Source: Synechocystis sp. PCC 6803 substr. PCC-P
GTDB taxonomy: Bacteria; Cyanobacteriota; Cyanobacteriia; Cyanobacteriales; Microcystaceae
Direction: 5' to 3'
Length of the DNA: 32,000 nt
NCBI RefSeq assembly: GCF_000284455.1
Contig: NC_017039.1
Span: forward strand, 2,340,001-2,372,000
Shown here: piece by piece, positions 1,978 through 23,513 of the stretch
How positions within the stretch are numbered: the stretch's first letter is position 1
Layout of the letters: the number at the start of each line of letters is the position of its first letter
The notes under the pieces: generated by a model
Databases searched by the model: none
Told to the model about the DNA's origin: nothing
What the model saw: only the letters and a program-made list of their open reading frames with translations
Position numbers and translations under genes: made by a program

Positions 1978-3585
1978 ATGAGTGCTACGGCGATCGCCCC
2001 CCGTTGGTTTGTTAAACAGGACATTGATGGCTTCTTTGGCCTGGCGGTGAACAACTTGGTGCAGATCCTGGTAATTGTGGGATTAACCCAATCGGTGTTG
2101 CAATTTCCTCTGACCCTGATCTATGGGCGCATTTTGCCCAGCATTGCCATTAGCTTAATTGTTGGCAACTTTTATTACAGTTGGTTGGCCTATCACCAGG
2201 GAAAAAGAGAAGGAAGGGATGACATCACCGCTTTGCCCTATGGCATCAATACAGTCAGTTTGTTTGCCTATGTTTTTCTGGTTATGCTGCCGGTGCGATT
2301 ATTGGCGATCGGCTCCGGGGCCAGCAGTGAAGCGGCGGCGGAATTGGCCTGGCAGGCGGGCTTAGTGGCCTGTTTCGGCTCCGGTCTGATTGAATTGGGG
2401 GGAGCTTGGGGAGCGGATTGGTTACGGCGTTATACCCCCAGGGCCGCTCTACTTTCCACCCTAGCGGGCATTGCGTTGACTTTCATTGCCCTAGGTTTTT
2501 TCCTCCGTACCTATGCCCATCCCTTAGTGGGCATTTTGCCCTTGGGAGTCATTCTGCTCAGCTATTTCGGCAAGGTTACTTTCCGTTTGCCGGGACTAAA
2601 ATTGGCGATTCCCGGGGGATTAATGGCCATTGTGCTGGGCACTGGCCTGGCTTGGATAACGGGATTAGTCGCTTGGGATGCTCCACAGGTGGAAGCGGCG
2701 ATCGCCCCCTTGGGAATTTATCTACCCAGCCTTGATTTGGTTAGCCTCTGGCAAGCAAAAGGGGTATTGGTCAGCTATTTCAGCATTATTCTGCCCATGG
2801 GGTTGTTCAATTTGGTGGGCAGTTTGCAAAACCTGGAAAGTGCGGCGGCGGCGGGGGATGATTATCCGACTGCTCCCTGTTTAGCGGTGAATGGTTTGGG
2901 CACCATTGCGGCGGCCCTATTTGGCTCCTGTTTTCCCACCACCATTTACATTGGTCATCCCGGTTGTAAAGATATGGGGGCAAGGATTGGTTATTCCTGG
3001 CTCAACGGTTTGGTGATGGCGGTTTTATGTCTCACCGGTAGTCTGAGTTTATTGGTTTATCTGATTCCCATCGATAGTGCCATGGCGATCGTGCTCTGGA
3101 TTGGCATCATCATTGTTAGCCAAAGTTTTAGTGCCACCCCGGTCAACCATTACCCCGCTGTGGTCATTGGCCTGTTGCCGGGCATTGCCGCTTGGGGGGC
3201 CTTAGTGGCAAAAAATTCTCTCCGGGTGGCAGGTCTAGGCACTCCGGATAATCCCATTACTCCAGAATTGGTACCTGCTTTTCAACAGGCAGATTTGTTT
3301 ATCACCGGAGCCTTTGCATTGGAACAGGGATTGATTTTTTCTGCCATGATCCTGGCCGCCATGACCGTTTACATCATTGAGCAAAAATTTGGCCTAGCTG
3401 CCCTCTGGGCGATCGCCGCCGGAATTTTATCCTGGTTGGGATTGATGCACAGTTACCGCTGGACAGGGGCGGACACAGTGATGGCTCTGGGGTGGGGGGC
3501 TGGAGCCAGTTGGGCCATCAGTTACTTTTTGCTGGCTTTGTTATTGATTTATGTGCAGTGGACTAACCCCAAAGGGCAAGATTGA
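1978..3585 (+). CDS. Polytopic membrane permease, NCS2/AzgA-like (xanthine/uracil/purine permease superfamily)
   Basis: 535-aa ORF with many hydrophobic helices throughout. The segment LQNLESAAAAGDDYPTAPCLAVNGLGTIAAALFGSCFPTTIYIGHPGCKDMGARIGYS resembles the conserved signature region of AzgA/COG2252 purine permeases. The family call rests on motif recollection only; the substrate is unknown. Confidence 0.6.
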   Translation: MSATAIAPRWFVKQDIDGFFGLAVNNLVQILVIVGLTQSVLQFPLTLIYGRILPSIAISLIVGNFYYSWLAYHQGKREGRDDITALPYGINTVSLFAYVFLVMLPVRLLAIGSGASSEAAAELAWQAGLVACFGSGLIELGGAWGADWLRRYTPRAALLSTLAGIALTFIALGFFLRTYAHPLVGILPLGVILLSYFGKVTFRLPGLKLAIPGGLMAIVLGTGLAWITGLVAWDAPQVEAAIAPLGIYLPSLDLVSLWQAKGVLVSYFSIILPMGLFNLVGSLQNLESAAAAGDDYPTAPCLAVNGLGTIAAALFGSCFPTTIYIGHPGCKDMGARIGYSWLNGLVMAVLCLTGSLSLLVYLIPIDSAMAIVLWIGIIIVSQSFSATPVNHYPAVVIGLLPGIAAWGALVAKNSLRVAGLGTPDNPITPELVPAFQQADLFITGAFALEQGLIFSAMILAAMTVYIIEQKFGLAALWAIAAGILSWLGLMHSYRWTGADTVMALGWGAGASWAISYFLLALLLIYVQWTNPKGQD

Positions 3586-4372: not shown

Positions 4373-4428
4373 GGTGGTTTCGCACAATTGTATTGTTAGT
4401 GTTATTTAATCTCCCTATTTTCTTCCCC

Positions 4429-4953
4429 ATGACCCGCGCCAAATTACTGCAACCGGATTTAGTTTTGGGCAAAACCATTGTGGAATTGTCCCCGGCCATT
4501 CTCGATCGCCATGGGGTCAAGGGTTTAGTGTTGGATGTGGACGAAACCCTGGTACCTTTTCGGGGGGATCAAGTTTCCGAGGAACTCCAGGCTTGGATTG
4601 ATCCCATTAAGGCCAAACTGCCCATTTGGTTGGTGAGCAACAATATGAGCGAGTCCCGCATTGGGGGAGTGGCCCAAACCCTGGATTTACCTTTCCTTTA
4701 TGGGGCGGCTAAACCGTCTCGCCGTAAACTGCGCCAAGCCATTGCCGAAATGCAATTGCCAGTGGAATCCGTTGCCATGGTGGGCGATCGCCTGTTTACC
4801 GATGTGCTGGCAGGGAATCGTTTGGGCATGTTCACCATTTTGGTGGAACCGATGGAGTTACCTGGTAAACCCCTCTATCCCTGGTCGATTAGGAATATTG
4901 AAGTCTGGCTTTCCCAGAAACTAGGGGTGACCTTGCAGGGCATTTTTGAATAA
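4429..4953 (+). CDS. HAD-superfamily phosphatase, YqeG-like (subfamily IIIA)
   Basis: HAD motif I is present as LVLDVDETLVP, with SNN, AAKPS and a late GDRLFTDV motif. I prefer the ATG at 4429 (MTRAKLLQ...) over the TTG at 4393 given in the ORF track. The start is uncertain. Confidence 0.75.
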   Translation: MTRAKLLQPDLVLGKTIVELSPAILDRHGVKGLVLDVDETLVPFRGDQVSEELQAWIDPIKAKLPIWLVSNNMSESRIGGVAQTLDLPFLYGAAKPSRRKLRQAIAEMQLPVESVAMVGDRLFTDVLAGNRLGMFTILVEPMELPGKPLYPWSIRNIEVWLSQKLGVTLQGIFE

Positions 4954-9149: not shown

Positions 9150-12100
9150 ATGCCTAACTCGACCTTGTTCGTCCTCGATTCCCGGGTGTTCCATGGGGGT
9201 CTGCTTCAGGCGGCTACTCTACCCAATATTGCGGTAATAACCCTAGATCCCGACCAAAGCGGTCTCCGGCAGATTACGGAAGCTTTGGGAAGACAAGGCG
9301 CTGTTCGTTCTCTGCATATTCTTTGCCATGGCTCTCCTGGCTGTCTGCACCTAGGTGATGGCCATCTGGGCTTAGATAATTTGGTCTACCACAGTGACGA
9401 GTTAAAAAGCTGGTTTGTCGGGGTTGAGTCTCCCCAACTATTTCTCTACGGCTGTAATGTAGCCGCTGGTGATGCCGGTACGGAATTTATTGAAAAGTTG
9501 GCCGGCTTGGCGGGGGCCGGGGTCTCCGCTTCTACCACGGCGATCGGGCATCAAGCCCTAGGTGGTAACTGGGTTTTAGATTTTCAAAAGGGTGATATTG
9601 TCATGGAAAATATTTTTTCTGCTCCTGAGTTAGCGGCCTATCCCGGCATCTTGGATGGCAATGGGCAATGGTCTTTGTTTGATCTAGTGGACTCCTCTGG
9701 TATCTACACCGAGCGACTGGATGCTCTGCAACCATTAGTACAAGAACAACTTTCCAGCTTTTTTGCCCAATCCGACTATCTCACCCAATTAGCCATTCCT
9801 TTTAGTGCCACTGCCAGCACTGATGACTGGACTAATAATGCGGAATCTTTGCGTTCTTCAATTTCGAACGGTAGTTACCAAATCCGTTTGGAAGTACGTT
9901 CTAGCGCTGAATTACAGGGAGCTTTGGGGGCTTATAGTGCTACGGGAACCACTGATACCCCGACCGTTTATCTCAACGCCGATTGGTTTGCCACTGCCAG
10001 TCAGGAGCAAATTGTTGCTGTCTTACTCGAAGAAATTGGCCATGACTTCGACCAGATTTTAAATGACGGGGCCGATAGCCAAGGCGATGAAGGGGAGATC
10101 TTTGCTAATTTAGTCAAACTAGGGGAAGTTAATCCAACCTATCTAGAAACTCTAAAAACACAAAATGATACTGGCTTTGCTTTTATTGACGGGCAAAAGA
10201 TAAATCTAGAGAATGCAGAAGATACCGTCTTAAATATTAATTTTCAAAACTTTGTATTTAACACTAATTTCACTACATCGACTCCTCCTCCAGGTGTACA
10301 AGAGGTTCGTTTATACACAAACATCATTCCAACTTTCACTACTCAGCAGATTAATGCAAAAGTAACTATAAGAGCTGTTAATATCACAATTGCCAACAGT
10401 ACCATTGATTCTAATGCTTCTAATACAGCAAGGATTCAGCCCCTCATTGATGCCAACGCTACTGGAGGTGGCTATTTTGAGTATCAGTTTGAATTCCAAG
10501 ATACTTTAGGAAATCCCATTTCTCTCAACCAATTTGCTCTGACAGGTATTGATGTTGATGGGAACTCAACAACTGAAAGAGAATTTTACGAAGTAAGCGG
10601 CTACTCCAATTACCAAATTGCTGTAGTTGGACCTCCTCGATTAAACGTTTCTGAATCCACTCAAGGAGATACTAAAACCTTAAGGGTTGATGGTAGGCCT
10701 TCCGTATTAACAGGCATTAGTTTTGACGACACTGCTTCTTTCATTGCCAACTTCCTCACACCTGTTTCATCTCTCACAGTCAGAGCCGGAGTTATCTGGA
10801 ACAATGCAAGTAATGATGTAAGGCAATTTTCTTTTGCTTTAGGAGCCCCACTTGGCACATTTTCAAACCCCCAGACTATTGACACCATTGCCCCCATTGT
10901 CACCAGCATTCTTCGCAATAATCCAACTTCAGAAATAACCAATGCCGATTCTTTAACTTTTCAAGTCACATTCTCGGAAAATGTTCAAAATGTCGATGTA
11001 AACGACTTTATCCTCAGTGGAACCGGCGTAAGCGGCGCTACCATCAGCAATGTTTCTGGCAGTGGGAGTGTTTACACCGTAACTGTCACAGGTATTGCCA
11101 ATAATAATGGAACCGTCAATCTGGACTTTGCCAGTGGACAGAACATACGAGATACCGCCAACAATGCCCTAAGCAATACCACTCCTACAACTGACGAGCA
11201 ATACACTTTAGACAACACAGCGCCAGCTGCCAGCATCACCTTAGATGCGAATATCACCGCCGATGACATCATCAACATTGCCGAGTCAGGACAAGCGATT
11301 CCTATCACCGGCACTGTTGGTGGTGAATTTAATGTTGGTGACACCGTCACATTGACGGTCAATGACAAGACCTTCACTGGTGCAGTCGGTGCGGGTGGTC
11401 TTTTCAGTATCAATGTTCCTGGTAGTGACCTCATTGTAGATGCTGATCTCACCATTGCTGCAAGTATTGCCACCACGGATGCAGCGGGTAATCTCGGCAG
11501 TGCCACCGATAACCAAACCTACACGGTTGATACGACAGCACCGATTCCAATAATCACAGTCAATGATGTCACTGCCGACAACATCATCAATGCTGCCGAG
11601 TCAGGACAAGCGATTCCTATCACCGGCACTGTTGGTGGTGAATTTAATGTTGGTGACACCGTCACATTGACGGTCAATGGCAAGCCCTTCACTGGGACTG
11701 TTGATGCCAATGGTGACTTCAGTATCGACGTTCTTGGTGGTGATTTAGTTAATGGCTCTGACCTGACCATTGCTGCCAGTGTTGCCACTACCGATGCAGC
11801 TGGTAATCCAGGCAGTGCTTCCGATAACCAAACCTACACTGTTGATACCACTGCTCCGACTGTCACCATCAATGCCATTGCGGTTGATGACATCATCAAT
11901 GCCGTGGAAGCAGGTAGTCCTGTTGCAGTCAGTGGCACCACGACTGGTGTTGAAGATGGTCAAGTCGTCACTGTCACCATTGATGGCAATACCTACACCG
12001 CCACCGTTACTGGTAATGCTTGGACATTCAATATCCCTGTCGCAGACATTGCCAACTTTGAAGCGACTGAAGAAGTCGTAGCTACTGTCAGTGATCTCGC

Positions 12101-15100
12101 TGGGAATCCCGCTACCCCTGCTACTCGCAACATCACTGTTGATACGGTTGCACCGGCCGTCACGATTGACAGCATCAGTGATGATACTGGCGCACAAGCT
12201 AATGACTTCATTACCAATGACGACACCCTTGTCTTCAATGGCACTGCAGAAGCAGATAGCACAGTTGTTGTCAGCTTAGATGGTATTGAAATCGGCACTG
12301 TGACTGCTAATGGTGCTGGTGAGTGGACCTTGGATTACACCGGCACCCTCCTGGCAGATGGCGACTATGAGCTGAGTGTGACTGCCACCAATCCCACTGG
12401 CAACAGCGCAACAGCAACTCAAACAATTGTTGTTGATACCACTGCTCCGACTGTCACCATCAATGCCATTGCGGTTGATGACATCATCAATGCCGTGGAA
12501 GCAGGTAGTCCTGTTGCAGTCAGTGGCACCACGACTGGTGTTGAAGATGGTCAAGTCGTCACTGTCACCATTGATGGCAATACCTACACCGCCACCGTTA
12601 CTGGTAATGCTTGGACATTCAATATCCCTGTCGCAGACATTGCCAACTTTGAAGCGACTGAAGAAGTCGTAGCCACTGTCAGTGACCTAGCCGGGAATCC
12701 CGCTACCCCCGCTACTCGCAACATCACTGTTGATACCACTGCTCCGACTGTCACCATCAATGCCATTGCGGTTGATGACATCATCAATGCCGTGGAAGCA
12801 GGTAGTCCTGTTGCAGTCAGTGGCACCACGACTGGTGTTGAAGATGGTCAAGTCGTCACTGTCACCATTGATGGCAATACCTACACCGCCACCGTTACTG
12901 GTAATGCTTGGACATTCAATATCCCTGTCGCAGACATTGCCAACTTTGAAGCGACTGAAGAAGTCGTAGCTACTGTCAGTGATCTCGCTGGGAATCCCGC
13001 TACCCCTGCTACTCGCAACATCACTGTTGATACGGTTGCACCGGCCGTCACGATTGACAGCATCAGTGATGATACTGGCGCACAAGCTAATGACTTCATT
13101 ACCAATGACGACACCCTTGTCTTCAATGGCACTGCAGAAGCAGATAGCACAGTTGTTGTCAGCTTAGATGGTATTGAAATCGGCACTGTGACTGCTAATG
13201 GTGCTGGTGAGTGGACCTTGGATTACACCGGCACCCTCCTGGCAGATGGCGACTATGAGCTGAGTGTGACTGCCACCAATCCCACTGGCAACAGCGCAAC
13301 AGCAACTCAAACAATTGTTGTTGATACCACTGCTCCGACTGTCACCATCAATGCCATTGCGGTTGATGACATCATCAATGCCGTGGAAGCAGGTAGTCCT
13401 GTTGCAGTCAGTGGCACCACGACTGGTGTTGAAGATGGTCAAGTCGTCACTGTCACCATTGATGGCAATACCTACACCGCCACCGTTACTGGTAATGCTT
13501 GGACATTCAATATCCCTGTCGCAGACATTGCCAACTTTGAAGCGACTGAAGAAGTCGTAGCCACTGTCAGTGACCTAGCCGGGAATCCCGCTACCCCCGC
13601 TACTCGCAACATCACTGTTGATACCACTGCTCCGACTGTCACCATCAATGCCATTGCGGTAGATGACATCATCAATGCCGTGGAAGCAGGTAGTCCTGTT
13701 GCAGTCAGTGGCACCACGACTGGTGTTGAAGATGGTCAAGTCGTCACTGTCACCATTGATGGCAATACCTACACCGCCACCGTTACTGGTAATGCTTGGA
13801 CATTCAATATCCCTGTCGCAGACATTGCCAACTTTGAAGCGACTGAAGAAGTCGTAGCTACTGTCAGTGATCTCGCTGGGAATCCCGCTACCCCTGCTAC
13901 TCGCAACATCACTGTTGATACGGTTGCACCGGCCGTCACGATTGACAGCATCAGTGATGATACTGGCGCACAAGCTAATGACTTCATTACCAATGACGAC
14001 ACCCTTGTCTTCAATGGCACTGCAGAAGCAGATAGCACAGTTGTTGTCAGCTTAGATGGTATTGAAATCGGCACTGTGACTGCTAATGGTGCTGGTGAGT
14101 GGACCTTGGATTACACCGGCACCCTCCTGGCAGATGGCGACTATGAGCTGAGTGTGACTGCCACCAATCCCACTGGCAACAGCGCAACAGCAACTCAAAC
14201 AATTGTTGTTGATACCACTGCTCCGACTGTCACCATCAATGCCATTGCGGTTGATGACATCATCAATGCCGTGGAAGCAGGTAGTCCTGTTGCAGTCAGT
14301 GGCACCACGACTGGTGTTGAAGATGGTCAAGTCGTCACTGTCACCATTGATGGCAATACCTACACCGCCACCGTTACTGGTAATGCTTGGACATTCAATA
14401 TCCCTGTCGCAGACATTGCCAACTTTGAAGCGACTGAAGAAGTCGTAGCCACTGTCAGTGACCTAGCCGGGAATCCCGCTACCCCCGCTACTCGCAACAT
14501 CACTGTTGATACCACTGCTCCGACTGTCACCATCAATGCCATTGCGGTTGATGACATCATCAATGCCGTGGAAGCAGGTAGTCCTGTTGCAGTCAGTGGC
14601 ACCACGACTGGTGTTGAAGATGGTCAAGTCGTCACTGTCACCATTGATGGCAATACCTACACCGCCACCGTTACTGGTAATGCTTGGACATTCAATATCC
14701 CTGTCGCAGACATTGCCAACTTTGAAGCGACTGAAGAAGTCGTAGCTACTGTCAGTGATCTCGCTGGGAATCCCGCTACCCCTGCTACTCGTAACATCAC
14801 TGTTGATACGGTTGCACCGGCCGTCACGATTGACAGCATCAGTGATGATACTGGCGCACAAGCTAATGACTTCATTACCAATGACGACACCCTTGTCTTC
14901 AATGGCACTGCAGAAGCAGATAGCACAGTTGTTGTCAGCTTAGATGGTATTGAAATCGGCACTGTGACTGCTAATGGTGCTGGTGAGTGGACCTTGGATT
15001 ACACCGGCACCCTCCTGGCAGATGGCGACTATGAGCTGAGTGTGACTGCCACCAATCCCACTGGCAACAGCGCAACAGCAACTCAAACAATTGTTGTTGA

Positions 15101-18100
15101 TACCACTGCTCCGACTGTCACCATCAATGCCATTGCGGTTGATGACATCATCAATGCCGTGGAAGCAGGTAGTCCTGTTGCAGTCAGTGGCACCACGACT
15201 GGTGTTGAAGATGGTCAAGTCGTCACTGTCACCATTGATGGCAATACCTACACCGCCACCGTTACTGGTAATGCTTGGACATTCAATATCCCTGTCGCAG
15301 ACATTGCCAACTTTGAAGCGACTGAAGAAGTCGTAGCCACTGTCAGTGACCTAGCCGGGAATCCCGCTACCCCCGCTACTCGCAACATCACTGTTGATAC
15401 CACTGCTCCGACTGTCACCATCAATGCCATTGCGGTTGATGACATCATCAATGCCGTGGAAGCAGGTAGTCCTGTTGCAGTCAGTGGCACCACGACTGGT
15501 GTTGAAGATGGTCAAGTCGTCACTGTCACCATTGATGGCAATACCTACACCGCCACCGTTACTGGTAATGCTTGGACATTCAATATCCCTGTCGCAGACA
15601 TTGCCAACTTTGAAGCGACTGAAGAAGTCGTAGCTACTGTCAGTGATCTCGCTGGGAATCCCGCTACCCCTGCTACTCGTAACATCACTGTTGATACGGT
15701 TGCACCGGCCGTCACGATTGACAGCATCAGTGATGATACTGGCGCACAAGCTAATGACTTCATTACCAATGACGACACCCTTGTCTTCAATGGCACTGCA
15801 GAAGCAGATAGCACAGTTGTTGTCAGCTTAGATGGTATTGAAATCGGCACTGTGACTGCTAATGGTGCTGGTGAGTGGACCTTGGATTACACCGGCACCC
15901 TCCTGGCAGATGGCGACTATGAGCTGAGTGTGACTGCCACCAATCCCACTGGCAACAGCGCAACAGCAACTCAAACAATTGTTGTTGATACCACTGCTCC
16001 GACTGTCACCATCAATGCCATTGCGGTTGATGACATCATCAATGCCGTGGAAGCAGGTAGTCCTGTTGCAGTCAGTGGCACCACGACTGGTGTTGAAGAT
16101 GGTCAAGTCGTCACTGTCACCATTGATGGCAATACCTACACCGCCACCGTTACTGGTAATGCTTGGACATTCAATATCCCTGTCGCAGACATTGCCAACT
16201 TTGAAGCGACTGAAGAAGTCGTAGCCACTGTCAGTGACCTAGCCGGGAATCCCGCTACCCCCGCTACTCGCAACATCACTGTTGATACCACTGCTCCGAC
16301 TGTCACCATCAATGCCATTGCGGTTGATGACATCATCAATGCCGTGGAAGCAGGTAGTCCTGTTGCAGTCAGTGGCACCACGACTGGTGTTGAAGATGGT
16401 CAAGTCGTCACTGTCACCATTGATGGCAATACCTACACCGCCACCGTTACTGGTAATGCTTGGACATTCAATATCCCTGTCGCAGACATTGCCAACTTTG
16501 AAGCGACTGAAGAAGTCGTAGCTACTGTCAGTGATCTCGCTGGGAATCCCGCTACCCCTGCTACTCGTAACATCACTGTTGATACGGTTGCACCGGCCGT
16601 CACGATTGACAGCATCAGTGATGATACTGGCGCACAAGCTAATGACTTCATTACCAATGACGACACCCTTGTCTTCAATGGCACTGCAGAAGCAGATAGC
16701 ACAGTTGTTGTCAGCTTAGATGGTATTGAAATCGGCACTGTGACTGCTAATGGTGCTGGTGAGTGGACCTTGGATTACACCGGCACCCTCCTGGCAGATG
16801 GCGACTATGAGCTGAGTGTGACTGCCACCAATCCCACTGGCAACAGCGCAACAGCAACTCAAACAATTGTTGTTGATACCACTGCTCCGACTGTCACCAT
16901 CAATGCCATTGCGGTTGATGACATCATCAATGCCGTGGAAGCAGGTAGTCCTGTTGCAGTCAGTGGCACCACGACTGGTGTTGAAGATGGTCAAGTCGTC
17001 ACTGTCACCATTGATGGCAATACCTACACCGCCACCGTTACTGGTAATGCTTGGACATTCAATATCCCTGTCGCAGACATTGCCAACTTTGAAGCGACTG
17101 AAGAAGTCGTAGCCACTGTCAGTGACCTAGCCGGGAATCCCGCTACCCCCGCTACTCGCAACATCACTGTTGATACCACTGCTCCGACTGTCACCATCAA
17201 TGCCATTGCGGTAGATGACATCATCAATGCCGTGGAAGCAGGTAGTCCTGTTGCAGTCAGTGGCACCACGACTGGTGTTGAAGATGGTCAAGTCGTCACT
17301 GTCACCATTGATGGCAATACCTACACCGCCACCGTTACTGGTAATGCTTGGACATTCAATATCCCTGTCGCAGACATTGCCAACTTTGAAGCGACTGAAG
17401 AAGTCGTAGCTACTGTCAGTGATCTCGCTGGGAATCCCGCTACCCCTGCTACTCGCAACATCACTGTTGATACGGTTGCACCAGCGGTTAATGAGCTTGA
17501 CATCACTGACAACACCGATACCGGCGCAGATGACTTGATTACTAGCAATGGCAATCCTGTCCTCACCTTCACGGGTGAACCTGGACTCACCATCACCCTT
17601 ACCGGTCCGGATGGTGCACTGGCTCCATCTGCTGCCTACACCGTCGCAGAGACACCCAGTGCGAATGGATCTACCTACACTGTCATCCTGCTGGATGCAA
17701 TTCCCAATGGAGAGCCAGATCCCTTTGGTGATTTTGCGAATGGTGTAGCAACCAATAATCCAGACAACACTGGCGACGGCACCTACACCATCGTTGCAAC
17801 CGATGCTGCCGGTAACAGTGTTGAAGTTGATGAGTTTGTCATTGACACCACTCCTCCCAACATTGCTATCACCGCTATCACAAACGACAGTGGCACCCCC
17901 GGCGACTTCATTACCAACGATCAAACCCTGATCTATAGCGGGACAACCGATGCCAATGCCACGGTGACAGTAACCCTCACCGACAGCAGCAACAACCCTG
18001 TCTTCACAGCCACCACCACCGCAGATGCCAATGGCAACTGGTCGCTAGACCGCACTGCCAACGAAACCTTAGCCGGAGGCACTTACACCCTCACGGCCAG

Positions 18101-21100
18101 CACAACGGATCTGGCTGGCAACACAACCACCGATACTCAAGCCATTCGCATTGAAACCAATGCACCAGGCATTGCCATCGCCAGCATCAGCACTGACAGC
18201 GGCATCCCCGGCGACTTTGTCACCAACGACCAAACCCTAGTCATTGCTGGAACCTGGACCAACCTGGATACCAACACCTTGGCAGTGACCTTTAACGGCA
18301 CGACCTATACCTTTGGGGAAAATCCTCAGCTAACAGTCAGTGGCAACAACTGGACCCTAGACCTCAGCGGTATCACCACCCCTCCAGGGGATTACGTCAT
18401 CACTGCTGTCACCACTGACTTAGCTAACAACACCAGCCAAGCCACTCAAAACGTCACGATCGACACCACAGCACCCAATGCCAGCATCACACTGACATCC
18501 AACATCACAGCAGATGATGTCATCAATGCCGTCGAAGCCGGTCAGCTCATTCCGATCACCGGCACCGTCGGTGGCAACGTCAGAGCCGGTGACATTGTCA
18601 CCCTCGCGATCGGTGGTCAAACCTTCACAGGAGCAGTCGCCAATGGTGGTACCTTCAGCATCGATGTTCCAGGTAGCGCCTTAGTCGCTGACCCTGACCG
18701 CACCATTCAGGCCAGCGTCACCACCACCGACCTAGCCGGTAACAGCACCACTGCTACCGACACGGAGAGTTATACCGTAGATACAACAGTGCCCGGAGCA
18801 CCGATTGTCACGATTACGGAAGACGTCAACAATGACGGGCTAATTAGTGTCGGGGAATTGAGTGGGTTAGTGGATGTATCTATAGCTATACCAGGTGGTG
18901 TGGTAGCAGGGGATATCCTGACTATCAGCGATGGCACCACTCCCCAAACCATCGTCTTAACCGCCGCCCAAATCAACGCCGGAGTAGTAACCACCCAGGT
19001 AGCAGTACCCAACCCAGGTACTACTTTAACGGTGACCGCCTTTGTTACAGATATTGCCGGTAACCAAGGTACCAGTGGCCGTGATAGTGCCGTATTAGAT
19101 ACCACCGCTCCCGGAGCACCCACCGTAACGATTACGGAAGATACCAATAATGACGGCTTCATAAGTGCAGGGGAATTGAATGGCCTAGTAGATGTATCGA
19201 TCGCCTTGCCCACTGGGTTAGTTGCTGGGGACACCCTGACCATTAGCGATGGCACCACTCCCCAGACCATTGTCCTCACCACCGCCCAAATCACCGCCGG
19301 AGTAGTAACCACCCAGGTAGCAGTACCCAACCCAGGTACTACTTTAACGGTGACCGCCTTTGTTACAGATATTGCCGGTAACCAAGGTCCCAGTGGCCGT
19401 GATAGTGCCGTATTAGATACCACCGCCCCCGAAGCACCGGTGGTCACGATCGCCGAAGATGCCAATAATGATGGCTTAATCAGTGCTGGGGAATTGAATG
19501 GCTTAGTAGATGTATTGATCGCCTTGCCCACTGGGTTAGTTGCTGGGGACACCCTGACCATTAGCGATGGCACCACTCCCCAGACCATTGTCCTCACCAC
19601 CGCCCAAATCACCGCCGGAGTAGTAACCACCCAGGTAGCAGTACCCAACCCAGGTACTACTTTAACGGTGACCGCCTTTGTTACAGATATTGCCGGTAAC
19701 CAAGGTCCCAGTGGCCGTGATAGTGCCGTATTAGATACCACCGCCCCCGAAGCACCGGTGGTCACGATCGCCGAAGATGCCAATAATGATGGCTTAATCA
19801 GTGCTGGGGAATTGAATGGCTTAGTAGATGTATTGATCGCCTTGCCCACTGGGTTAGTTGCTGGGGACACTCTGACCATTAGCGATGGCACCACTCCCCA
19901 AACCATCGTCTTAACCGCCGCCCAAATCAACGCCGGAGTAGTAACCACCCAGGTAGCAGTACCCGCCGAAGGTGCCACTTTAACGGTGAGTGCATTCATA
20001 ACGGATAATACTGGGAACCAAGGTCCTGATGGCAGCGATAGTGCCGTATTAAACACCACAGCGCCTAATGCCGGCCCCCTGGACATCACTGACGCAACTG
20101 ATACCGGCGCCGATGACTTGTTGAGCAGTAATGGTAACCCCGAACTGACTTTCACTGGTGAACCAGGATTAGAGATTGAGTTGCTTGGGCCTGATGGTAA
20201 CCCTGTTGATCCCGATGCCTATGAAGTGGTAGAAACCCCCGGTGCCAACCCTGGTGACCCTTCCACCTACACAATCAAATTAATTGACGCTGATCCATCT
20301 GACCCAGATAGCGATCCGTTTGGAGACTTCTTCAATGGAGTTGTCACAGGGAACCCTGCCAACACTGGGGATGGAACCTACACCATCACAGCAACGGATA
20401 ATGCAGGCAATACCAACGATGTAGGTCAATTTGAAATTGATACGACTTCTCCCGGTACTCCCAACAATGGCAATTCTCCTTTCAGTCCCCTGGACATCAC
20501 TGACCCAACTGATACCGGTGCCGATGACTTGTTGAGTAGTGATGGTAACCCCGAACTGACTTTCACTGGTGAACCAGGATTAGAGATTGAGTTGCTTGGG
20601 TCTGATGGTAATTCTGTTGACCCCGATGCCTATGAAGTGCTAGAAACCCCCGGTGTAAACCCTGGTGACCCTTCCACCTACACAATCAAGTTAATTGACG
20701 CTGACCCATCTGACCCAGATAGCGATCCGTTTGGAGACTTCTTCAATGGCTCCCCCACAGGTAATGGGGCCAATACCGGCGATGGCATTTACACCATCAC
20801 AGCAACGGATAATGCAGGTAATACCAACGATGTAGGTCAATTTGAAATTGATACGACTTCTCCCGGTACTCCCAACAATGGCAATTCTCCTTTCAGCCCC
20901 CTAGACATCACTGACGCAACTGATACCGGCGCCGATGACTTGTTGAGCGGTAATGGCAACCCCGAACTGACCTTTAGCGGTGAGTCAGGATTAGAGATTG
21001 AGTTGCTTGGGCCTGACGGTAATCCCGTCGATCCCGATGCCTATGAAGTGGTGGAAACTCCCGGTGCCAACCCTGGTGACCCTTCCACGTACACAATCAA

Positions 21101-23513
21101 ATTAGTTGACGCTGACCCTGACCCATCTGACCCGGATAGCGATCCGTTTGGAGACTTCTTCAATGGAGTTGTCACAGGGAACCCTGCCAACACTGGGGAT
21201 GGAACCTACACCATCACAGCAACGGATAATGCAGGCAATACCAACGATGTAGGCCAATTTGAAATTAAGACTAGTTCTCTAATTTCTATCAACGATGATC
21301 GGGGTACCGTTGTCATTGGCGATCTGGGTTTTGGCTCCATCAATGTCGATGTCTTAGCCAACGATCAGGGCTTGGGCATTCAGATCACCAACCTGACCCA
21401 ACCTCTTAAAGGTACGGCGGTGCTGCGGGATAATGGCACCCCCAATAATTTCAGTGACGATTTCTTGACCTATCACATCCATGAAGAGTTATTGGATTTA
21501 CGTTCAGCCACAGGGCCTGTACGCATAGATATCAGTGATATTTTCAGCAGTGCGAGCTACAACAATTCCGTCGGCTTCTATCAAGTTTTGGATCATTTTG
21601 GCACCATTCTTGATCCGGCTTCTGGGCGACTTTTAACCCCGGCAGATCTGGAATACAGAAATGTGGCCCTGGCCAGCGCCATTCCTGGGCTACAAATCAG
21701 TAAGGATAATCCAGTTCAGTCCATTGAACTACCTGGAGGCGGCATCTATGCTCCGTTCCTAACGTCTGACCAGGGTAACGGGCAAGTGAATCACTTCTTC
21801 GCCCTCATTGATGCCAATCCAGGTCAAGTGGACTATGTTCGTTTTGCCAATGGCACCTATAGCTTTGAAGATAGTGCCTTTGGCGATCGAGATTTCAATG
21901 ATCTGCGATTTGCGGTCAATATTTTGCCCCAGGGAGGTTTCGTTCCCCCAGCCATTGGCCTCACCGCTAACGCGGGAGTTTTCACCGCCAATGGGCTCGT
22001 TGATCAATTTACCTACACCATCACCGATGTTAATGGGGATAATCGGACCGCTAGCGTTGCCATTGACAATCAGGAACATCTCAAATTCACCCTGCTGGGA
22101 GTGGACGGAGATTTCAAAAATGAGGTGGCTATTTTCAGGGTGGACGATCGCCAGGGAACTATCAATGGCATTGCCCCAGGACAAGCAGGCTATCTGGAAG
22201 CGGCCTTAAGCAATAGCCAGGTGATATTTACCGGTATCAGTGGACAGACTCAGCTTTTCGGTGAATCCCTGACCCGGACTATGGAAGAATTCAAAGTTAG
22301 TGATAGTTTTGGTTTCCTGTTAATCCAGAATAATTCCCTGGATATGGTGCTCAGAGAGCAGGCCGCCGGGGCCATATCCACTCCGGTTTTCTTCAGTCAG
22401 GCGATCGCCAATGGCAATCAAATCCAACAAATCCCGAGTAATGATGGTCAGGGGATAGTTGTTGCTTGGGAAGATATTGCCCAGGGAGGAGACGGGGACT
22501 TTAATGACTTTATCTTCCGGGTGGCAATGACAGACCAACCGGCTCCCTTGGGGACGCTCTACCAAGGGCAAGCTCAACAGGAGATCTTCGCTAATACGAG
22601 CAATCAAAACGTTCAAATCGGGGTTCAGATCGCCAGTGACTCTGCCTATGACAATACTGTTGGTTTCTACCTGGTTCAAAATGCCCAGGGCACGGTGCTG
22701 GATTACACCACCGGTCAACTGGTCAACCCCGGTGATGCCAACTATGCTGAAGTGGCGGTGCGGCAACGTCTTGCCCTTGGTTCCAACGGCCAACCCATTG
22801 GGGGGGAAATTCGCCCAGGGCAAATTATTGCTCCCTTCCTGATTTCCAATGGCACCGAAAATCAATTCCTGACGGTTAATCCTGTCAACCAGGCGATCGC
22901 CGCTGGCCCCGTTGCCTTCTTTAGCTACATCAATGCCAACCCCGATGGACTGGATCATTTCCGGTTACTGGCGGATAACACCTTTGGGGTGGAAGACATG
23001 TTAGGAGGAGGAGACTTTGACTACAACGACGTGGTCATTAAGTTGGATCAGAATCCTGTTAATCGGGAATTATTGGACCTGCGTTCCCTCAGTGGCTCCG
23101 TAAATCTTGGCATCAACGAAATCACCGGTGATGCTTCCTTTGGGCTCTCCGTTGGTTTTTATCGGGTGGAAAATCAGTTTGGTGCCATTGCGGACCCCCT
23201 GACGGGCCAACTGCTAAACCCTGGTGATGGCAACTATCAAGCCGTGGCGCTGCAAAATACTGCCGCCCAATTTACTGTTACCCCCAGTACCACGACCCAG
23301 GCATTGGAGCTAACCGGGGGGAGCTTGTTTGCTCCTTACCTCACCGTCAGTCAGTCCGACGGCAATGTCTTTAATTACTTCTCCTATCTGGGGGCTAACC
23401 CTGATCAGGCAGATCACATTCGGGTTTTGGGGGATACCTTCCAATTTGAGGATGGCTTCTGGGGGGGAGATATGGACTTTAATGACCTCCAGTTCCGGAT
23501 TAACATCCAATAG
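9150..23513 (+). CDS. Giant (4787 aa) modular Ig-like repeat surface/adhesin-like protein: DUF4347-like N-terminus, about 33 Ig-like modules, cadherin-like segment, 4 x DUF4114-like C-terminal domains
   Basis: Single uninterrupted 14,364-nt ORF. All tandem repeats have periods that are multiples of 3 and stay in frame. The composition is Thr/Val/Asp/Asn/Ala/Gly-rich and acidic, with recurrent TVDTTAP linkers. No hydrophobic N-terminal signal peptide (MPNSTLFVLDSRVFHGG...) and no GGxGxD RTX nonapeptides were seen. No Shine-Dalgarno is evident before the ATG at 9150. Confidence 0.9.
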   Translation: MPNSTLFVLDSRVFHGGLLQAATLPNIAVITLDPDQSGLRQITEALGRQGAVRSLHILCHGSPGCLHLGDGHLGLDNLVYHSDELKSWFVGVESPQLFLYGCNVAAGDAGTEFIEKLAGLAGAGVSASTTAIGHQALGGNWVLDFQKGDIVMENIFSAPELAAYPGILDGNGQWSLFDLVDSSGIYTERLDALQPLVQEQLSSFFAQSDYLTQLAIPFSATASTDDWTNNAESLRSSISNGSYQIRLEVRSSAELQGALGAYSATGTTDTPTVYLNADWFATASQEQIVAVLLEEIGHDFDQILNDGADSQGDEGEIFANLVKLGEVNPTYLETLKTQNDTGFAFIDGQKINLENAEDTVLNINFQNFVFNTNFTTSTPPPGVQEVRLYTNIIPTFTTQQINAKVTIRAVNITIANSTIDSNASNTARIQPLIDANATGGGYFEYQFEFQDTLGNPISLNQFALTGIDVDGNSTTEREFYEVSGYSNYQIAVVGPPRLNVSESTQGDTKTLRVDGRPSVLTGISFDDTASFIANFLTPVSSLTVRAGVIWNNASNDVRQFSFALGAPLGTFSNPQTIDTIAPIVTSILRNNPTSEITNADSLTFQVTFSENVQNVDVNDFILSGTGVSGATISNVSGSGSVYTVTVTGIANNNGTVNLDFASGQNIRDTANNALSNTTPTTDEQYTLDNTAPAASITLDANITADDIINIAESGQAIPITGTVGGEFNVGDTVTLTVNDKTFTGAVGAGGLFSINVPGSDLIVDADLTIAASIATTDAAGNLGSATDNQTYTVDTTAPIPIITVNDVTADNIINAAESGQAIPITGTVGGEFNVGDTVTLTVNGKPFTGTVDANGDFSIDVLGGDLVNGSDLTIAASVATTDAAGNPGSASDNQTYTVDTTAPTVTINAIAVDDIINAVEAGSPVAVSGTTTGVEDGQVVTVTIDGNTYTATVTGNAWTFNIPVADIANFEATEEVVATVSDLAGNPATPATRNITVDTVAPAVTIDSISDDTGAQANDFITNDDTLVFNGTAEADSTVVVSLDGIEIGTVTANGAGEWTLDYTGTLLADGDYELSVTATNPTGNSATATQTIVVDTTAPTVTINAIAVDDIINAVEAGSPVAVSGTTTGVEDGQVVTVTIDGNTYTATVTGNAWTFNIPVADIANFEATEEVVATVSDLAGNPATPATRNITVDTTAPTVTINAIAVDDIINAVEAGSPVAVSGTTTGVEDGQVVTVTIDGNTYTATVTGNAWTFNIPVADIANFEATEEVVATVSDLAGNPATPATRNITVDTVAPAVTIDSISDDTGAQANDFITNDDTLVFNGTAEADSTVVVSLDGIEIGTVTANGAGEWTLDYTGTLLADGDYELSVTATNPTGNSATATQTIVVDTTAPTVTINAIAVDDIINAVEAGSPVAVSGTTTGVEDGQVVTVTIDGNTYTATVTGNAWTFNIPVADIANFEATEEVVATVSDLAGNPATPATRNITVDTTAPTVTINAIAVDDIINAVEAGSPVAVSGTTTGVEDGQVVTVTIDGNTYTATVTGNAWTFNIPVADIANFEATEEVVATVSDLAGNPATPATRNITVDTVAPAVTIDSISDDTGAQANDFITNDDTLVFNGTAEADSTVVVSLDGIEIGTVTANGAGEWTLDYTGTLLADGDYELSVTATNPTGNSATATQTIVVDTTAPTVTINAIAVDDIINAVEAGSPVAVSGTTTGVEDGQVVTVTIDGNTYTATVTGNAWTFNIPVADIANFEATEEVVATVSDLAGNPATPATRNITVDTTAPTVTINAIAVDDIINAVEAGSPVAVSGTTTGVEDGQVVTVTIDGNTYTATVTGNAWTFNIPVADIANFEATEEVVATVSDLAGNPATPATRNITVDTVAPAVTIDSISDDTGAQANDFITNDDTLVFNGTAEADSTVVVSLDGIEIGTVTANGAGEWTLDYTGTLLADGDYELSVTATNPTGNSATATQTIVVDTTAPTVTINAIAVDDIINAVEAGSPVAVSGTTTGVEDGQVVTVTIDGNTYTATVTGNAWTFNIPVADIANFEATEEVVATVSDLAGNPATPATRNITVDTTAPTVTINAIAVDDIINAVEAGSPVAVSGTTTGVEDGQVVTVTIDGNTYTATVTGNAWTFNIPVADIANFEATEEVVATVSDLAGNPATPATRNITVDTVAPAVTIDSISDDTGAQANDFITNDDTLVFNGTAEADSTVVVSLDGIEIGTVTANGAGEWTLDYTGTLLADGDYELSVTATNPTGNSATATQTIVVDTTAPTVTINAIAVDDIINAVEAGSPVAVSGTTTGVEDGQVVTVTIDGNTYTATVTGNAWTFNIPVADIANFEATEEVVATVSDLAGNPATPATRNITVDTTAPTVTINAIAVDDIINAVEAGSPVAVSGTTTGVEDGQVVTVTIDGNTYTATVTGNAWTFNIPVADIANFEATEEVVATVSDLAGNPATPATRNITVDTVAPAVTIDSISDDTGAQANDFITNDDTLVFNGTAEADSTVVVSLDGIEIGTVTANGAGEWTLDYTGTLLADGDYELSVTATNPTGNSATATQTIVVDTTAPTVTINAIAVDDIINAVEAGSPVAVSGTTTGVEDGQVVTVTIDGNTYTATVTGNAWTFNIPVADIANFEATEEVVATVSDLAGNPATPATRNITVDTTAPTVTINAIAVDDIINAVEAGSPVAVSGTTTGVEDGQVVTVTIDGNTYTATVTGNAWTFNIPVADIANFEATEEVVATVSDLAGNPATPATRNITVDTVAPAVNELDITDNTDTGADDLITSNGNPVLTFTGEPGLTITLTGPDGALAPSAAYTVAETPSANGSTYTVILLDAIPNGEPDPFGDFANGVATNNPDNTGDGTYTIVATDAAGNSVEVDEFVIDTTPPNIAITAITNDSGTPGDFITNDQTLIYSGTTDANATVTVTLTDSSNNPVFTATTTADANGNWSLDRTANETLAGGTYTLTASTTDLAGNTTTDTQAIRIETNAPGIAIASISTDSGIPGDFVTNDQTLVIAGTWTNLDTNTLAVTFNGTTYTFGENPQLTVSGNNWTLDLSGITTPPGDYVITAVTTDLANNTSQATQNVTIDTTAPNASITLTSNITADDVINAVEAGQLIPITGTVGGNVRAGDIVTLAIGGQTFTGAVANGGTFSIDVPGSALVADPDRTIQASVTTTDLAGNSTTATDTESYTVDTTVPGAPIVTITEDVNNDGLISVGELSGLVDVSIAIPGGVVAGDILTISDGTTPQTIVLTAAQINAGVVTTQVAVPNPGTTLTVTAFVTDIAGNQGTSGRDSAVLDTTAPGAPTVTITEDTNNDGFISAGELNGLVDVSIALPTGLVAGDTLTISDGTTPQTIVLTTAQITAGVVTTQVAVPNPGTTLTVTAFVTDIAGNQGPSGRDSAVLDTTAPEAPVVTIAEDANNDGLISAGELNGLVDVLIALPTGLVAGDTLTISDGTTPQTIVLTTAQITAGVVTTQVAVPNPGTTLTVTAFVTDIAGNQGPSGRDSAVLDTTAPEAPVVTIAEDANNDGLISAGELNGLVDVLIALPTGLVAGDTLTISDGTTPQTIVLTAAQINAGVVTTQVAVPAEGATLTVSAFITDNTGNQGPDGSDSAVLNTTAPNAGPLDITDATDTGADDLLSSNGNPELTFTGEPGLEIELLGPDGNPVDPDAYEVVETPGANPGDPSTYTIKLIDADPSDPDSDPFGDFFNGVVTGNPANTGDGTYTITATDNAGNTNDVGQFEIDTTSPGTPNNGNSPFSPLDITDPTDTGADDLLSSDGNPELTFTGEPGLEIELLGSDGNSVDPDAYEVLETPGVNPGDPSTYTIKLIDADPSDPDSDPFGDFFNGSPTGNGANTGDGIYTITATDNAGNTNDVGQFEIDTTSPGTPNNGNSPFSPLDITDATDTGADDLLSGNGNPELTFSGESGLEIELLGPDGNPVDPDAYEVVETPGANPGDPSTYTIKLVDADPDPSDPDSDPFGDFFNGVVTGNPANTGDGTYTITATDNAGNTNDVGQFEIKTSSLISINDDRGTVVIGDLGFGSINVDVLANDQGLGIQITNLTQPLKGTAVLRDNGTPNNFSDDFLTYHIHEELLDLRSATGPVRIDISDIFSSASYNNSVGFYQVLDHFGTILDPASGRLLTPADLEYRNVALASAIPGLQISKDNPVQSIELPGGGIYAPFLTSDQGNGQVNHFFALIDANPGQVDYVRFANGTYSFEDSAFGDRDFNDLRFAVNILPQGGFVPPAIGLTANAGVFTANGLVDQFTYTITDVNGDNRTASVAIDNQEHLKFTLLGVDGDFKNEVAIFRVDDRQGTINGIAPGQAGYLEAALSNSQVIFTGISGQTQLFGESLTRTMEEFKVSDSFGFLLIQNNSLDMVLREQAAGAISTPVFFSQAIANGNQIQQIPSNDGQGIVVAWEDIAQGGDGDFNDFIFRVAMTDQPAPLGTLYQGQAQQEIFANTSNQNVQIGVQIASDSAYDNTVGFYLVQNAQGTVLDYTTGQLVNPGDANYAEVAVRQRLALGSNGQPIGGEIRPGQIIAPFLISNGTENQFLTVNPVNQAIAAGPVAFFSYINANPDGLDHFRLLADNTFGVEDMLGGGDFDYNDVVIKLDQNPVNRELLDLRSLSGSVNLGINEITGDASFGLSVGFYRVENQFGAIADPLTGQLLNPGDGNYQAVALQNTAAQFTVTPSTTTQALELTGGSLFAPYLTVSQSDGNVFNYFSYLGANPDQADHIRVLGDTFQFEDGFWGGDMDFNDLQFRINIQ
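9159..9595 (+). other. DUF4347-like N-terminal domain of the giant protein
   Basis: The pattern LFVLDSRV...ITLDPDQSGLRQITEAL...SLHILCHGSPGCLHLG...LYGCNVAAGDAGTEFIEKLAGLAGAGVSASTTAIGHQALGGNWVLD matches my recollection of the DUF4347 signature. That domain heads many giant bacterial adhesin-like proteins. Confidence 0.7.
11215..11840 (+). repeat. Two tandem 315-bp (105-aa) Ig-like modules (TAD(D/N)IIN..ESGQAIPITGTVGGEFNVGDTVTLTVN type)
   Basis: An identical roughly 85-nt block (ccgagtcaggacaagcgattcctatcaccggcactgttggtggtgaatttaatgttggtgacaccgtcacattgacggtcaatg) starts at 11281 and again at 11596, an offset of 315. A third, more diverged copy lies at about 18465..18775. Confidence 0.85.
11841..17465 (+). 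repeat. Higher-order in-frame tandem array: 888-bp unit (A 297 bp + A 297 bp + B 294 bp), about 6.3 copies; 13 A modules and 6 B modules
   Basis: A modules (TTAPTVTINAIAVDDIINAVEAGSPVAVSG...) start at 11841, 12432, 12729, 13320, 13617, 14208, 14505, 15096, 15393, 15984, 16281, 16872 and 17169. B modules (TVAPAVTIDSISDDTGAQANDFITNDD...) start at 12138, 13026, 13914, 14802, 15690 and 16578. Off-frame ORFs in the track recur at exact 888-nt offsets with identical translations except at two sites. Confidence 0.95.
18774..20045 (+). repeat. 4 x 318-bp (106-aa) tandem modules (APxVTIxEDxNNDGLISxGELxGLVDV... type)
   Basis: The boundary motif gtattagataccacc recurs at 19092, 19410 and 19728, with related boundaries at 18774 and 20046. 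Copies 2-4 share long identical blocks in a mosaic pattern. Confidence 0.9.
20079..21275 (+). repeat. 3 x about 411-bp (137-aa) tandem acidic modules (LDITDxTDTGADDLLS...DPSDPDSDPFGDFFNG...GDGTYTITATDNAGNTNDVGQFEIDTTSPGTPNNGNSPFSP)
   Basis: L-D-I-T-D starts at 20079, 20490 and 20901, an offset of 411. The third copy carries a 2-aa insertion (DPDPSDPDSD). A diverged fourth copy lies at about 17485..17850, immediately after the 888-bp array. Confidence 0.9.
22401..22408. repeat. HIP1 octamer GCGATCGC (one of only two inside the giant gene)
   Basis: Exact GCGATCGC read directly from the sequence. Confidence 0.95.
22893..22900. repeat. HIP1 octamer GCGATCGC (second of two inside the giant gene)
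   Basis: Exact GCGATCGC read directly from the sequence. Confidence 0.95.

Follow-up and report, generated by a model that had tools for sequence, protein, structure and literature searches.

Arrays of near-identical, in-frame immunoglobulin-like (Ig-like) domains are well known in giant adhesins, including region II (RII) of MpIBP/MpAFP, alpha C/Rib, SasG/Aap, and Bap. Region II of MpIBP/MpAFP from Marinomonas primoryensis (structures 4P99, 4KDV, and 5IRB) consists of about 120 near-identical Ca2+-stabilised Ig-like extenders of 104 amino acids (aa) each. SiiE, Bap, and the RTX adhesins are exported by known type I secretion system (T1SS) or sortase routes, and the 53 BIg domains of SiiE are diverged rather than near-identical. 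Near-identical repeats that vary in number among isolates are known from alpha C/Rib of group B Streptococcus, SasG of S. aureus, Aap of S. epidermidis, Enterococcus Esp, and the yeast FLO/ALS genes. Here we describe an array of this type, and no new kind of system, in a 32,000-nucleotide window of the chromosome of a cyanobacterium, Synechocystis sp. PCC 6803 substr. PCC-P (NC_017039.1, positions 2,340,001 to 2,372,000; coordinates below are those of the window unless stated otherwise), where an 888-bp unit is reiterated within the giant gene slr0364/slr0366. Very probably, a cassette of three domains in the extender of an adhesin-like protein was amplified in frame only very recently, and homologous recombination has kept the copies uniform.

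The array and MpIBP region II have in common head-to-tail, near-identical, in-frame DNA units, a giant acidic protein, and ligand-binding modules at the C-terminus. In contrast to region II, the repeat in Synechocystis is a three-domain cassette (two RII-like domains and one Big_13 domain) present in only 6.4 copies, and Slr0364/0366 has neither RTX repeats nor T1SS genes in the window, while its Ca2+ dependence may be supposed by analogy. Its N-terminus is a DUF4347 domain with a predicted caspase/Tce1-like fold, which differs from that of the retention module of LapA and MpIBP. SiiE (2YN3/2YN5), Bap (7DM0), and the RTX-adhesin tetra-tandemers (6XI1, 6XI3) share the fold class and beads-on-a-string layout of the array. 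With alpha C/Rib, SasG/Aap, Esp, and FLO/ALS it shares in-frame near-identical units, a recombinational contraction (in substrain GT-W), and a conversion-like homogenisation (in substrain GT-T); unlike those systems, in which variation is frequent and linked to immune escape or adhesion phenotypes, change at this locus is rare among the lines surveyed. The gene also resembles swmB of marine Synechococcus WH8102 in encoding a giant and repetitive protein, SwmB being a 1.12-MDa repetitive cell-surface protein required for swimming, whereas PCC 6803 moves by type IV pili and does not swim. Tichy et al. (2016) label slr0364 as SwmB, but this should be treated as a loose annotation.

The array lies in frame within a single open reading frame (ORF) of 4787 codons, which joins two annotated genes:

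9150 to 23513, + strand: giant ORF, slr0364 and slr0366 joined; 4787 aa, 490 kDa, isoelectric point (pI) 4.05.
18072 to 18074, + strand: codon Ala2975 (GCC), at which one C is missing in the 1996 Kazusa sequence (Kazusa position 2360245), splitting the gene.

The product has 611 acidic and 83 basic residues and three cysteines in total. Exact matches to the 4787-aa protein were found on 13 chromosome-sized contigs, including CP129343.1 (3.57 Mb) and AP012495.1 (7.59 Mb); both of these agree with the whole 32-kb window base for base, and the latter belongs to the strain of Bacillus subtilis into which a Synechocystis genome was cloned. The same protein cluster contains the Kazusa PCC 6803 proteins slr0364 (3029 aa) and slr0366 (1742 aa), and three resequencing papers attribute the split between them to a frameshift error in the database. 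The 1996 Kazusa record, BA000022.2, has the identical array at 2354010-2359655; window coordinates equal Kazusa coordinates minus 2342173, a conversion that is valid between two known database insertions.

Comparison of the window with itself at an offset of 888 bp delimited the array and its parts:

11837 to 17482, + strand: the whole array, 6.36 copies of the 888-bp unit, whose product (aa 898-2772) contains 13 A and 6 B Ig-like domains.
11841 to 12137, + strand: first copy of module A, 99 aa, a predicted MpIBP-RII-like Ca_tandemer Ig-like domain.
12138 to 12431, + strand: first copy of module B, 98 aa, a predicted Big_13 Ig-like domain.
12432 to 12728, + strand: first copy of module A', 99 aa, identical to A as protein and differing from it in DNA at five synonymous sites.
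17466 to 17482, + strand: right array boundary, where the next, unrelated module opens with the first 17 nucleotides of module B (VDTVAPAV...).

Over these 5646 bp, mismatches at the 888-bp offset come from two sites only, the longest mismatch-free run is 2420 bp, and full units differ from one another by a mean of 0.00105 per site, a similarity far above chance. Each unit comprises 296 codons and encodes three domains of 29.8 kDa together; all 13 A-type copies are identical as protein, and all six B copies are identical as DNA. Tandem Repeats Finder (TRF) calls the region as a 297-bp period x 19. An earlier sequence-only reading of the window had claimed an array of about 5.6 kb built from some 6.3 units of 888 bp, and the self-comparison bears this out. 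The bounds that it gave, 11841-17465, are correct in their coordinates, although identity runs slightly further, opening 4 bp ahead of 11841 and ending 17 bp past 17465. Its description of the unit as an A-A-B trimodule (297+297+294 bp) holds for composition and phasing; a unit that starts at 11841, however, runs A (297 bp), B (294 bp), A' (297 bp), and its two A copies are not identical as DNA.

Differences within the array are confined to two marker sites among units and a short patch that tells A from A':

11885 + 888n (11885 to 17213), + strand: variable site 1, reading T, T, A, T, T, T, A, with A at 13661 and 17213; Val GTT/GTA.
12128 + 888n (12128 to 17456), + strand: variable site 2, reading C, C, C, T, T, T, C, with T at 14792, 15680, and 16568; Arg CGC/CGT.
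12674 to 12710, + strand: A/A' patch, recurring every 888 bp, 37 bp holding all five A/A' differences.

In the reading frame of the giant ORF, both marker sites fall on the third base of a codon. That only two polymorphic sites exist, and that both are synonymous, had been proposed beforehand with the same coordinates and bases, and the exact alignment of the units at the 888-bp offset gave no differences beyond them; the list for site 1 was right except that it left off the first position, 11885. The five positions at which A and A' differ (12674, 12686, 12689, 12692, and 12710, each + 888n) are all synonymous third-codon positions and lie towards the 3' end of the module, whereas over its first 240 bp A and A' do not differ. 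That all five are synonymous shows that the A-A' duplication is older than the 888-bp amplification and that the protein is under selection. Likewise, each of the seven positions that vary among the 13 A copies is a synonymous third-codon position, so the protein is constrained in its sequence and the gene is a live one. A donor-like copy for the 37-bp patch was sought in the window, and none was found within 8 mismatches; the patch looks like a stretch that escaped, or came in by, an older conversion event.

The age of the amplification can be gauged against other repeats in the same gene and against the orthologues. Three older sets of modules flank the array:

11254 to 11859, + strand: two older A-like Ig modules, 315-bp period x 1.9, about 83% identical, directly upstream of the array.
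18778 to 20059, + strand: older tandem array, four copies of 318 bp with 80-95% identity.
20074 to 21266, + strand: older tandem array, 2.9 copies of 411 bp with about 89% matches.

The array units are 99.9% identical, as opposed to 80-95% in the older arrays. Syntenic orthologues occur in Synechocystis FACHB-383 and CS-94, with a shared RluA-HAD-DUF3769-psbI-DciA context, and these have other middle architectures, on contigs that stop inside the repeats. FACHB-383 has one A-like module with 75% DNA identity to A, followed by a different module. This comparison indicates that the cassette modules are old, whereas the six-fold amplification is recent and specific to the PCC 6803 lineage. A search of genome contigs with the unique N-terminal 897 aa returned distant Chloroflexota matches only. 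These identities support the prior suggestion of very recent amplification or strong concerted evolution. A contrary explanation holds that the units are old and that their identity is maintained by purifying selection at the level of protein, RNA, or codons, rather than by recency or recombination. It draws on the fact that all differences are synonymous and the protein is constrained, but selection on the protein cannot hold about 296 synonymous sites per unit identical over six units, older arrays of the same type in this gene have drifted to 80-95% identity, and a homogenising synonymous change is seen directly in GT-T (below). We regard this explanation as extremely improbable.

We hypothesize that the array began from the arrangement A-B-A'-A, which is the likely starting point, and grew through unequal recombination of the RecA type, either between sister chromosomes or among the many genome copies of the polyploid cell. 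Perfect homology of up to 2.4 kb would then feed ongoing unequal crossover and gene conversion between units and so maintain their uniformity. With a unit length divisible by three, every such event would change the protein by 296 aa and keep the frame. Taken together, sites 1 and 2 give the unit haplotype string TC, TC, AC, TT, TT, TT, AC. A breadth-first search over block duplications and single mutations yielded this string in seven events, namely five tandem block duplications and two mutations. Duplications and two mutations therefore suffice, and the marker pattern on its own needs no gene conversion; it is accordingly not compelling to argue from the two patterns against nested duplication.

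For GT-W, Tichy et al. (2016) list a "5326 bp del" within slr0364, placed at Kazusa 2354038, and Kukil et al. (2023) repeat the entry. This position corresponds to window 11865, inside unit 0, and six units amount to 5328 bp. At an offset of 5328 bp, 11837-12154 is identical except at 11885, so the breakpoint of the deletion is ambiguous. The GT-W deletion is the array collapsed to its last partial unit, although Tichy et al. did not read it so. The supplements of Tichy et al. (2016) hold nothing on the GT-W deletion, and nothing further was found in the literature on the Kazusa coordinates of the marker sites. With a loss of roughly 6 x 888 bp, GT-W lends support to the predicted copy-number variation between laboratory substrains.

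A second change was recovered from a nanopore (Oxford Nanopore Technologies, ONT) preprint in which three wild-type lines were mapped to BA000022 (doi 10.64898/2026.04.08.717167), the Stockholm and Uppsala lines being GT-T and the Freiburg line PCC-M. A single-nucleotide polymorphism (SNP), Kazusa 2355834 A>T (gtA/gtT, V1504), is listed there at an allele fraction of 0.985 (271 reads) for Stockholm and 0.972 (217 reads) for Uppsala, and is not listed for Freiburg PCC-M. This position converts to window 13661, which is site 1 of unit 2. In GT-T, the minority A at 13661 has thus become the majority T of the adjacent units, while the A at 17213 is unchanged. A chance mutation at exactly this position to exactly the paralogous base is very unlikely, and the natural reading is that gene conversion between units, or two crossovers with the same effect, brought it about. 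At allele fractions of 0.97-0.99, the change supports the unequal crossover or gene conversion that had been suggested from the marker sites. The Illumina tables of the same preprint also contain low-frequency calls in the array (fraction 0.06-0.10, at reduced depth) at window 12081, 17177, 17186, and 17197 (Kazusa 2354254, 2359350, 2359359, and 2359370). Such calls most likely stem from reads of the older A-like modules that mapped into the array; true heteroplasmy between copies of the genome is a less likely reading.

An array of such identity invites the question of whether its uniformity, its copy number, or both derive from a consensus collapse in the 1996 shotgun sequence that was passed on by reference-guided resequencing. 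Many PCC 6803 substrain records were made by mapping reads onto the Kazusa sequence, and the base-for-base agreement of the window with CP129343.1 and AP012495.1 across 32 kb is what such inheritance would produce. The array is not resolvable by short reads, and Tajima et al. (2011) describe a 3-kb repeated region, whose position the text does not give, over which no clean polymerase chain reaction (PCR) was obtained. Against this, the structural-variant sheet of the ONT preprint has no slr0364-annotated row for any of the three wild-type lines, and the two marker sites make a consistent three-haplotype pattern. Moreover, ONT resolves the SNP of a single unit, at 13661, in two lines (allele fraction 0.97-0.99) but not in the remaining one, which shows that reads were assigned to individual units and that PCC-M does carry the reference A. 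An assembly artefact is therefore largely refuted already, and we consider it very improbable.

The array does disrupt short-read assembly, as had been anticipated. In the short-read assemblies of FACHB-898, FACHB-908, and FACHB-929, the N-terminal fragment of the protein ends at aa 930-938, and FACHB-898 and 908 also have a C-terminal fragment that begins about 48-52 aa ahead of the array end. In addition, contigs of 530-590 bp represent circularly collapsed A+B pieces (A+B = 591 bp). One of 590 bp, deposited as "Acinetobacter sp. IRS14" (P0127, MEA1231484.1), reads B-tail, A, B-head; the P0127 and P0131 contigs are equivalent to window positions of about 12236-12826 in collapsed form, and a 530-bp PCC 6803 contig shows the same collapse behaviour. 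The "Acinetobacter sp. IRS14" contig is probably Synechocystis contamination combined with circular repeat collapse. A metagenome scaffold from ENA (L014; ERZ4200885 NODE_597) joins the flanks over the 5.5-kb array by exactly 100 N, its contig sequence ending on both sides 56 nucleotides (k+1, with k = 55) inside the array, at window 11891 and 17428. The scaffold was entertained as a collapsed or deletion allele, which we reject; both ends lying 56 nucleotides inside the array next to 100 N points to a repeat-induced break and not a deletion.

Repeat number alters function or antigenicity in the alpha C protein, SasG/Aap, and yeast FLO proteins, and by the same token the Synechocystis array could be a programmed contingency or length-tuning locus, in which high-frequency copy-number change is selected to adjust how far a fibre reaches, or to diversify the surface, from one environment to another. 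All changes are in frame, the unit being divisible by three, one large contraction has occurred in a laboratory lineage (GT-W), and the middle regions of the orthologues are strongly divergent between Synechocystis strains, all of which would suit such a locus. The surveyed counts are at odds with it, however: the same unit number is found in 14 of 14 chromosome-scale records (13 identical proteins and the split Kazusa version), and the three ONT lines have no length change. Among public assemblies, look-ups through the neighbouring genes returned only the reference count or broken and short contigs. Copy-number differences among clonal derivatives are thus not frequent, with one contraction (GT-W) in a small sample in which many records are probably reference-guided. 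Since a unit has 296 codons, a change in copy number alters length only and leaves no room for on/off switching of the gene. Neither a dedicated recombinase nor an associated element is present near it in the window, and the GT-W deletion has no linked phenotype. The contingency mechanism proposed in the sequence-only reading consequently finds no support, given the in-frame nature of the changes, the 14 uniform chromosomes, and the three ONT lines lacking a structural variant, and we judge it unlikely to a marked degree. The related notion that the array is a working length regulator of a lectin-tipped surface fibre, with a copy number that varies among the many chromosome copies of one polyploid cell or among culture regimes and is selected, strikes us as improbable too. 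Were it true, selection could match the length of the fibre to the depth of the S-layer or exopolysaccharide coat, collapse would be favoured in laboratory domestication, as in GT-W, and the locus would serve as a natural reporter of recombination within the genome as well as being a tunable trait.

The preferred account, recent amplification within the extender of an adhesin-like protein, also draws on the nature of the repeated domains. One unit scores 199.5 bits against the NCBIfam model Ca_tandemer (NF033510; cut-off 50) in three matched stretches, a family described as "Ca2+-stabilized repeat-containing adhesin", and 108.7 bits against Ig_like_ice (cut-off 50). Pfam Big_13 matches over the B modules with E 4.5e-151, the best stretch being aa 1008-1097. 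A PDB sequence search placed 4P99 (the MpAFP RII tetra-tandemer) first with E 4.4e-52, module A aligning to RII, followed by RTX adhesin 5IRB, SiiE 2YN3, and Bap 7DM0. The AlphaFold model of the unit (predicted local distance difference test, pLDDT, 94.1) comprises three all-beta sandwich domains, and Foldseek with this model again returned 4P99 first (E 1.9e-21, 39% identity), followed by 5IRB, 2YN5, 6XI3, and 6XI1. Profiles, structural models, and database matches agree in assigning the modules to Ig-like beta-sandwiches of the Ca_tandemer / MpIBP-region-II type. The unit has a pI of 4.05, and the Asp residues at domain starts are invariant or nearly so (alignment A2), which is indirect evidence for the predicted binding of Ca2+ where domains meet, by which the rod would be stiffened. 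We hypothesize that the array's 19 domains act as a rod-like spacer, separating a DUF4347 domain close to the cell from lectin-like DUF4114 modules at the far end; these lie at the two ends of the protein:

9168 to 9653 (aa 7-168), + strand: N-terminal DUF4347 domain, Pfam E 2.4e-45, predicted caspase-like fold.
22290 to 23504, + strand: C-terminal DUF4114 modules, three scored by Pfam, with a fourth DFND motif at about 21891.

In DUF4347, His60-Gly61 and Cys102-Asn103 are invariant across 24 homologues, each behind a hydrophobic strand (alignment A1), and all three cysteines of the 4787-aa protein lie within this domain. Its AlphaFold model (pLDDT 86.5) best matches the Pseudomonas aeruginosa type VI secretion system (T6SS) effector Tce1 with Hcp3 (9QPE; template modelling score, TM, 0.54, in Foldseek), and the next matches are caspases 1/3/7 and legumain. 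The domain therefore looks like a clan-CD (caspase-like) fold in its model, and it could be a candidate self-processing or retention module. PA0256 is a DUF4347 protein standing alone. At the other end, four C-terminal modules close with the motif G(D/G)xDFNDxxF, three of which score as DUF4114. DUF4114 in PilY1.1 has been described as Ca2+-dependent, PA-IIL-like sugar-binding, and lectin-like (PMC9109919), and it was also reported as lectin-like and Ca2+-dependent in the Acanthamoeba mannose-binding protein, which by analogy suggests sugar binding at the distal end of Slr0364/0366. As predicted from sequence and models, the layout as a whole resembles that of a giant adhesin, with an anchor, an extender, and distal ligand-binding modules.

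Several observations weigh against the proposed account. With respect to export, the 4787 aa contain no RTX nonapeptide (no GGxGxD or GGxGx[DN], and no PF00353 match), no type I secretion genes (ABC transporter, membrane fusion, or TolC-like) were found within the 32-kb window, and no Sec signal was found, DUF4347 beginning at residue 7. Export and surface exposure of Slr0364/0366 are presumed, and Ca2+ binding and rod-like rigidity of the extender are attributed to it by homology only. The gene is weakly expressed, with about 5.6 reads per kilobase per million (RPKM) in the wild type in published RNA-seq. With respect to the substrains, the GT-W deletion was called from short reads mapped on the reference and is given as 5326 rather than 5328 bp, which would literally be a frameshift and not an in-frame collapse. 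The finding of no structural variant in the ONT lines rests on missing slr0364-annotated rows in a supplementary table, and most of the 13 identical assemblies may be reference-guided and thus not independent counts. A canonical RTX adhesin with type I secretion was also entertained as a class for the protein and is rejected, there being neither nonapeptide repeats nor T1SS genes in the window.

The genes around the giant ORF are unrelated housekeeping and signalling genes. Those in the window encode a PAS-GGDEF-EAL protein, a 535-aa ORF, an RluA-type pseudouridine synthase, HAD, DUF3769, and PsbI, as well as DciA, an AcrB-type RND pump, an aldehyde dehydrogenase, a histidine kinase, and AccD. 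The 535-aa ORF, upstream at 1978-3585 (+), has no Pfam match at E <= 0.001. In published RNA-seq, slr0364 is up 2- to 4.6-fold in a lexA mutant, along with the nearby slr0362 (window 4393-4953). The giant gene also stands out in its content of the HIP1 palindrome GCGATCGC, which occurs 21 times in the 17.6 kb outside it (1.19 per kb) and not once between 8594 and 22400, that is, over nearly the whole gene. About 10-16 copies would be expected in this interval (P about 3e-5 even after discounting redundant units), and the gap may reflect a foreign or recent origin of the repetitive core, or constraint.

For the biology of PCC 6803, the array is one of few loci where laboratory "wild types" differ by recombination and not by point mutation. 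Short-read resequencing is blind to such differences and mis-assembles the region, so that what was recorded in GT-W as a "5326 bp deletion" becomes a repeat collapse, and a SNP seen only by ONT in GT-T becomes inter-unit homogenisation. The analysis further provides a plausible architecture for an uncharacterised 490-kDa protein, with a putative caspase-like N-terminus, a Ca_tandemer extender, and a lectin-like C-terminus, in which the length of the extender might bear on fitness. More generally, the two synonymous markers make it possible to follow gene conversion and unequal crossover within a polyploid bacterium.

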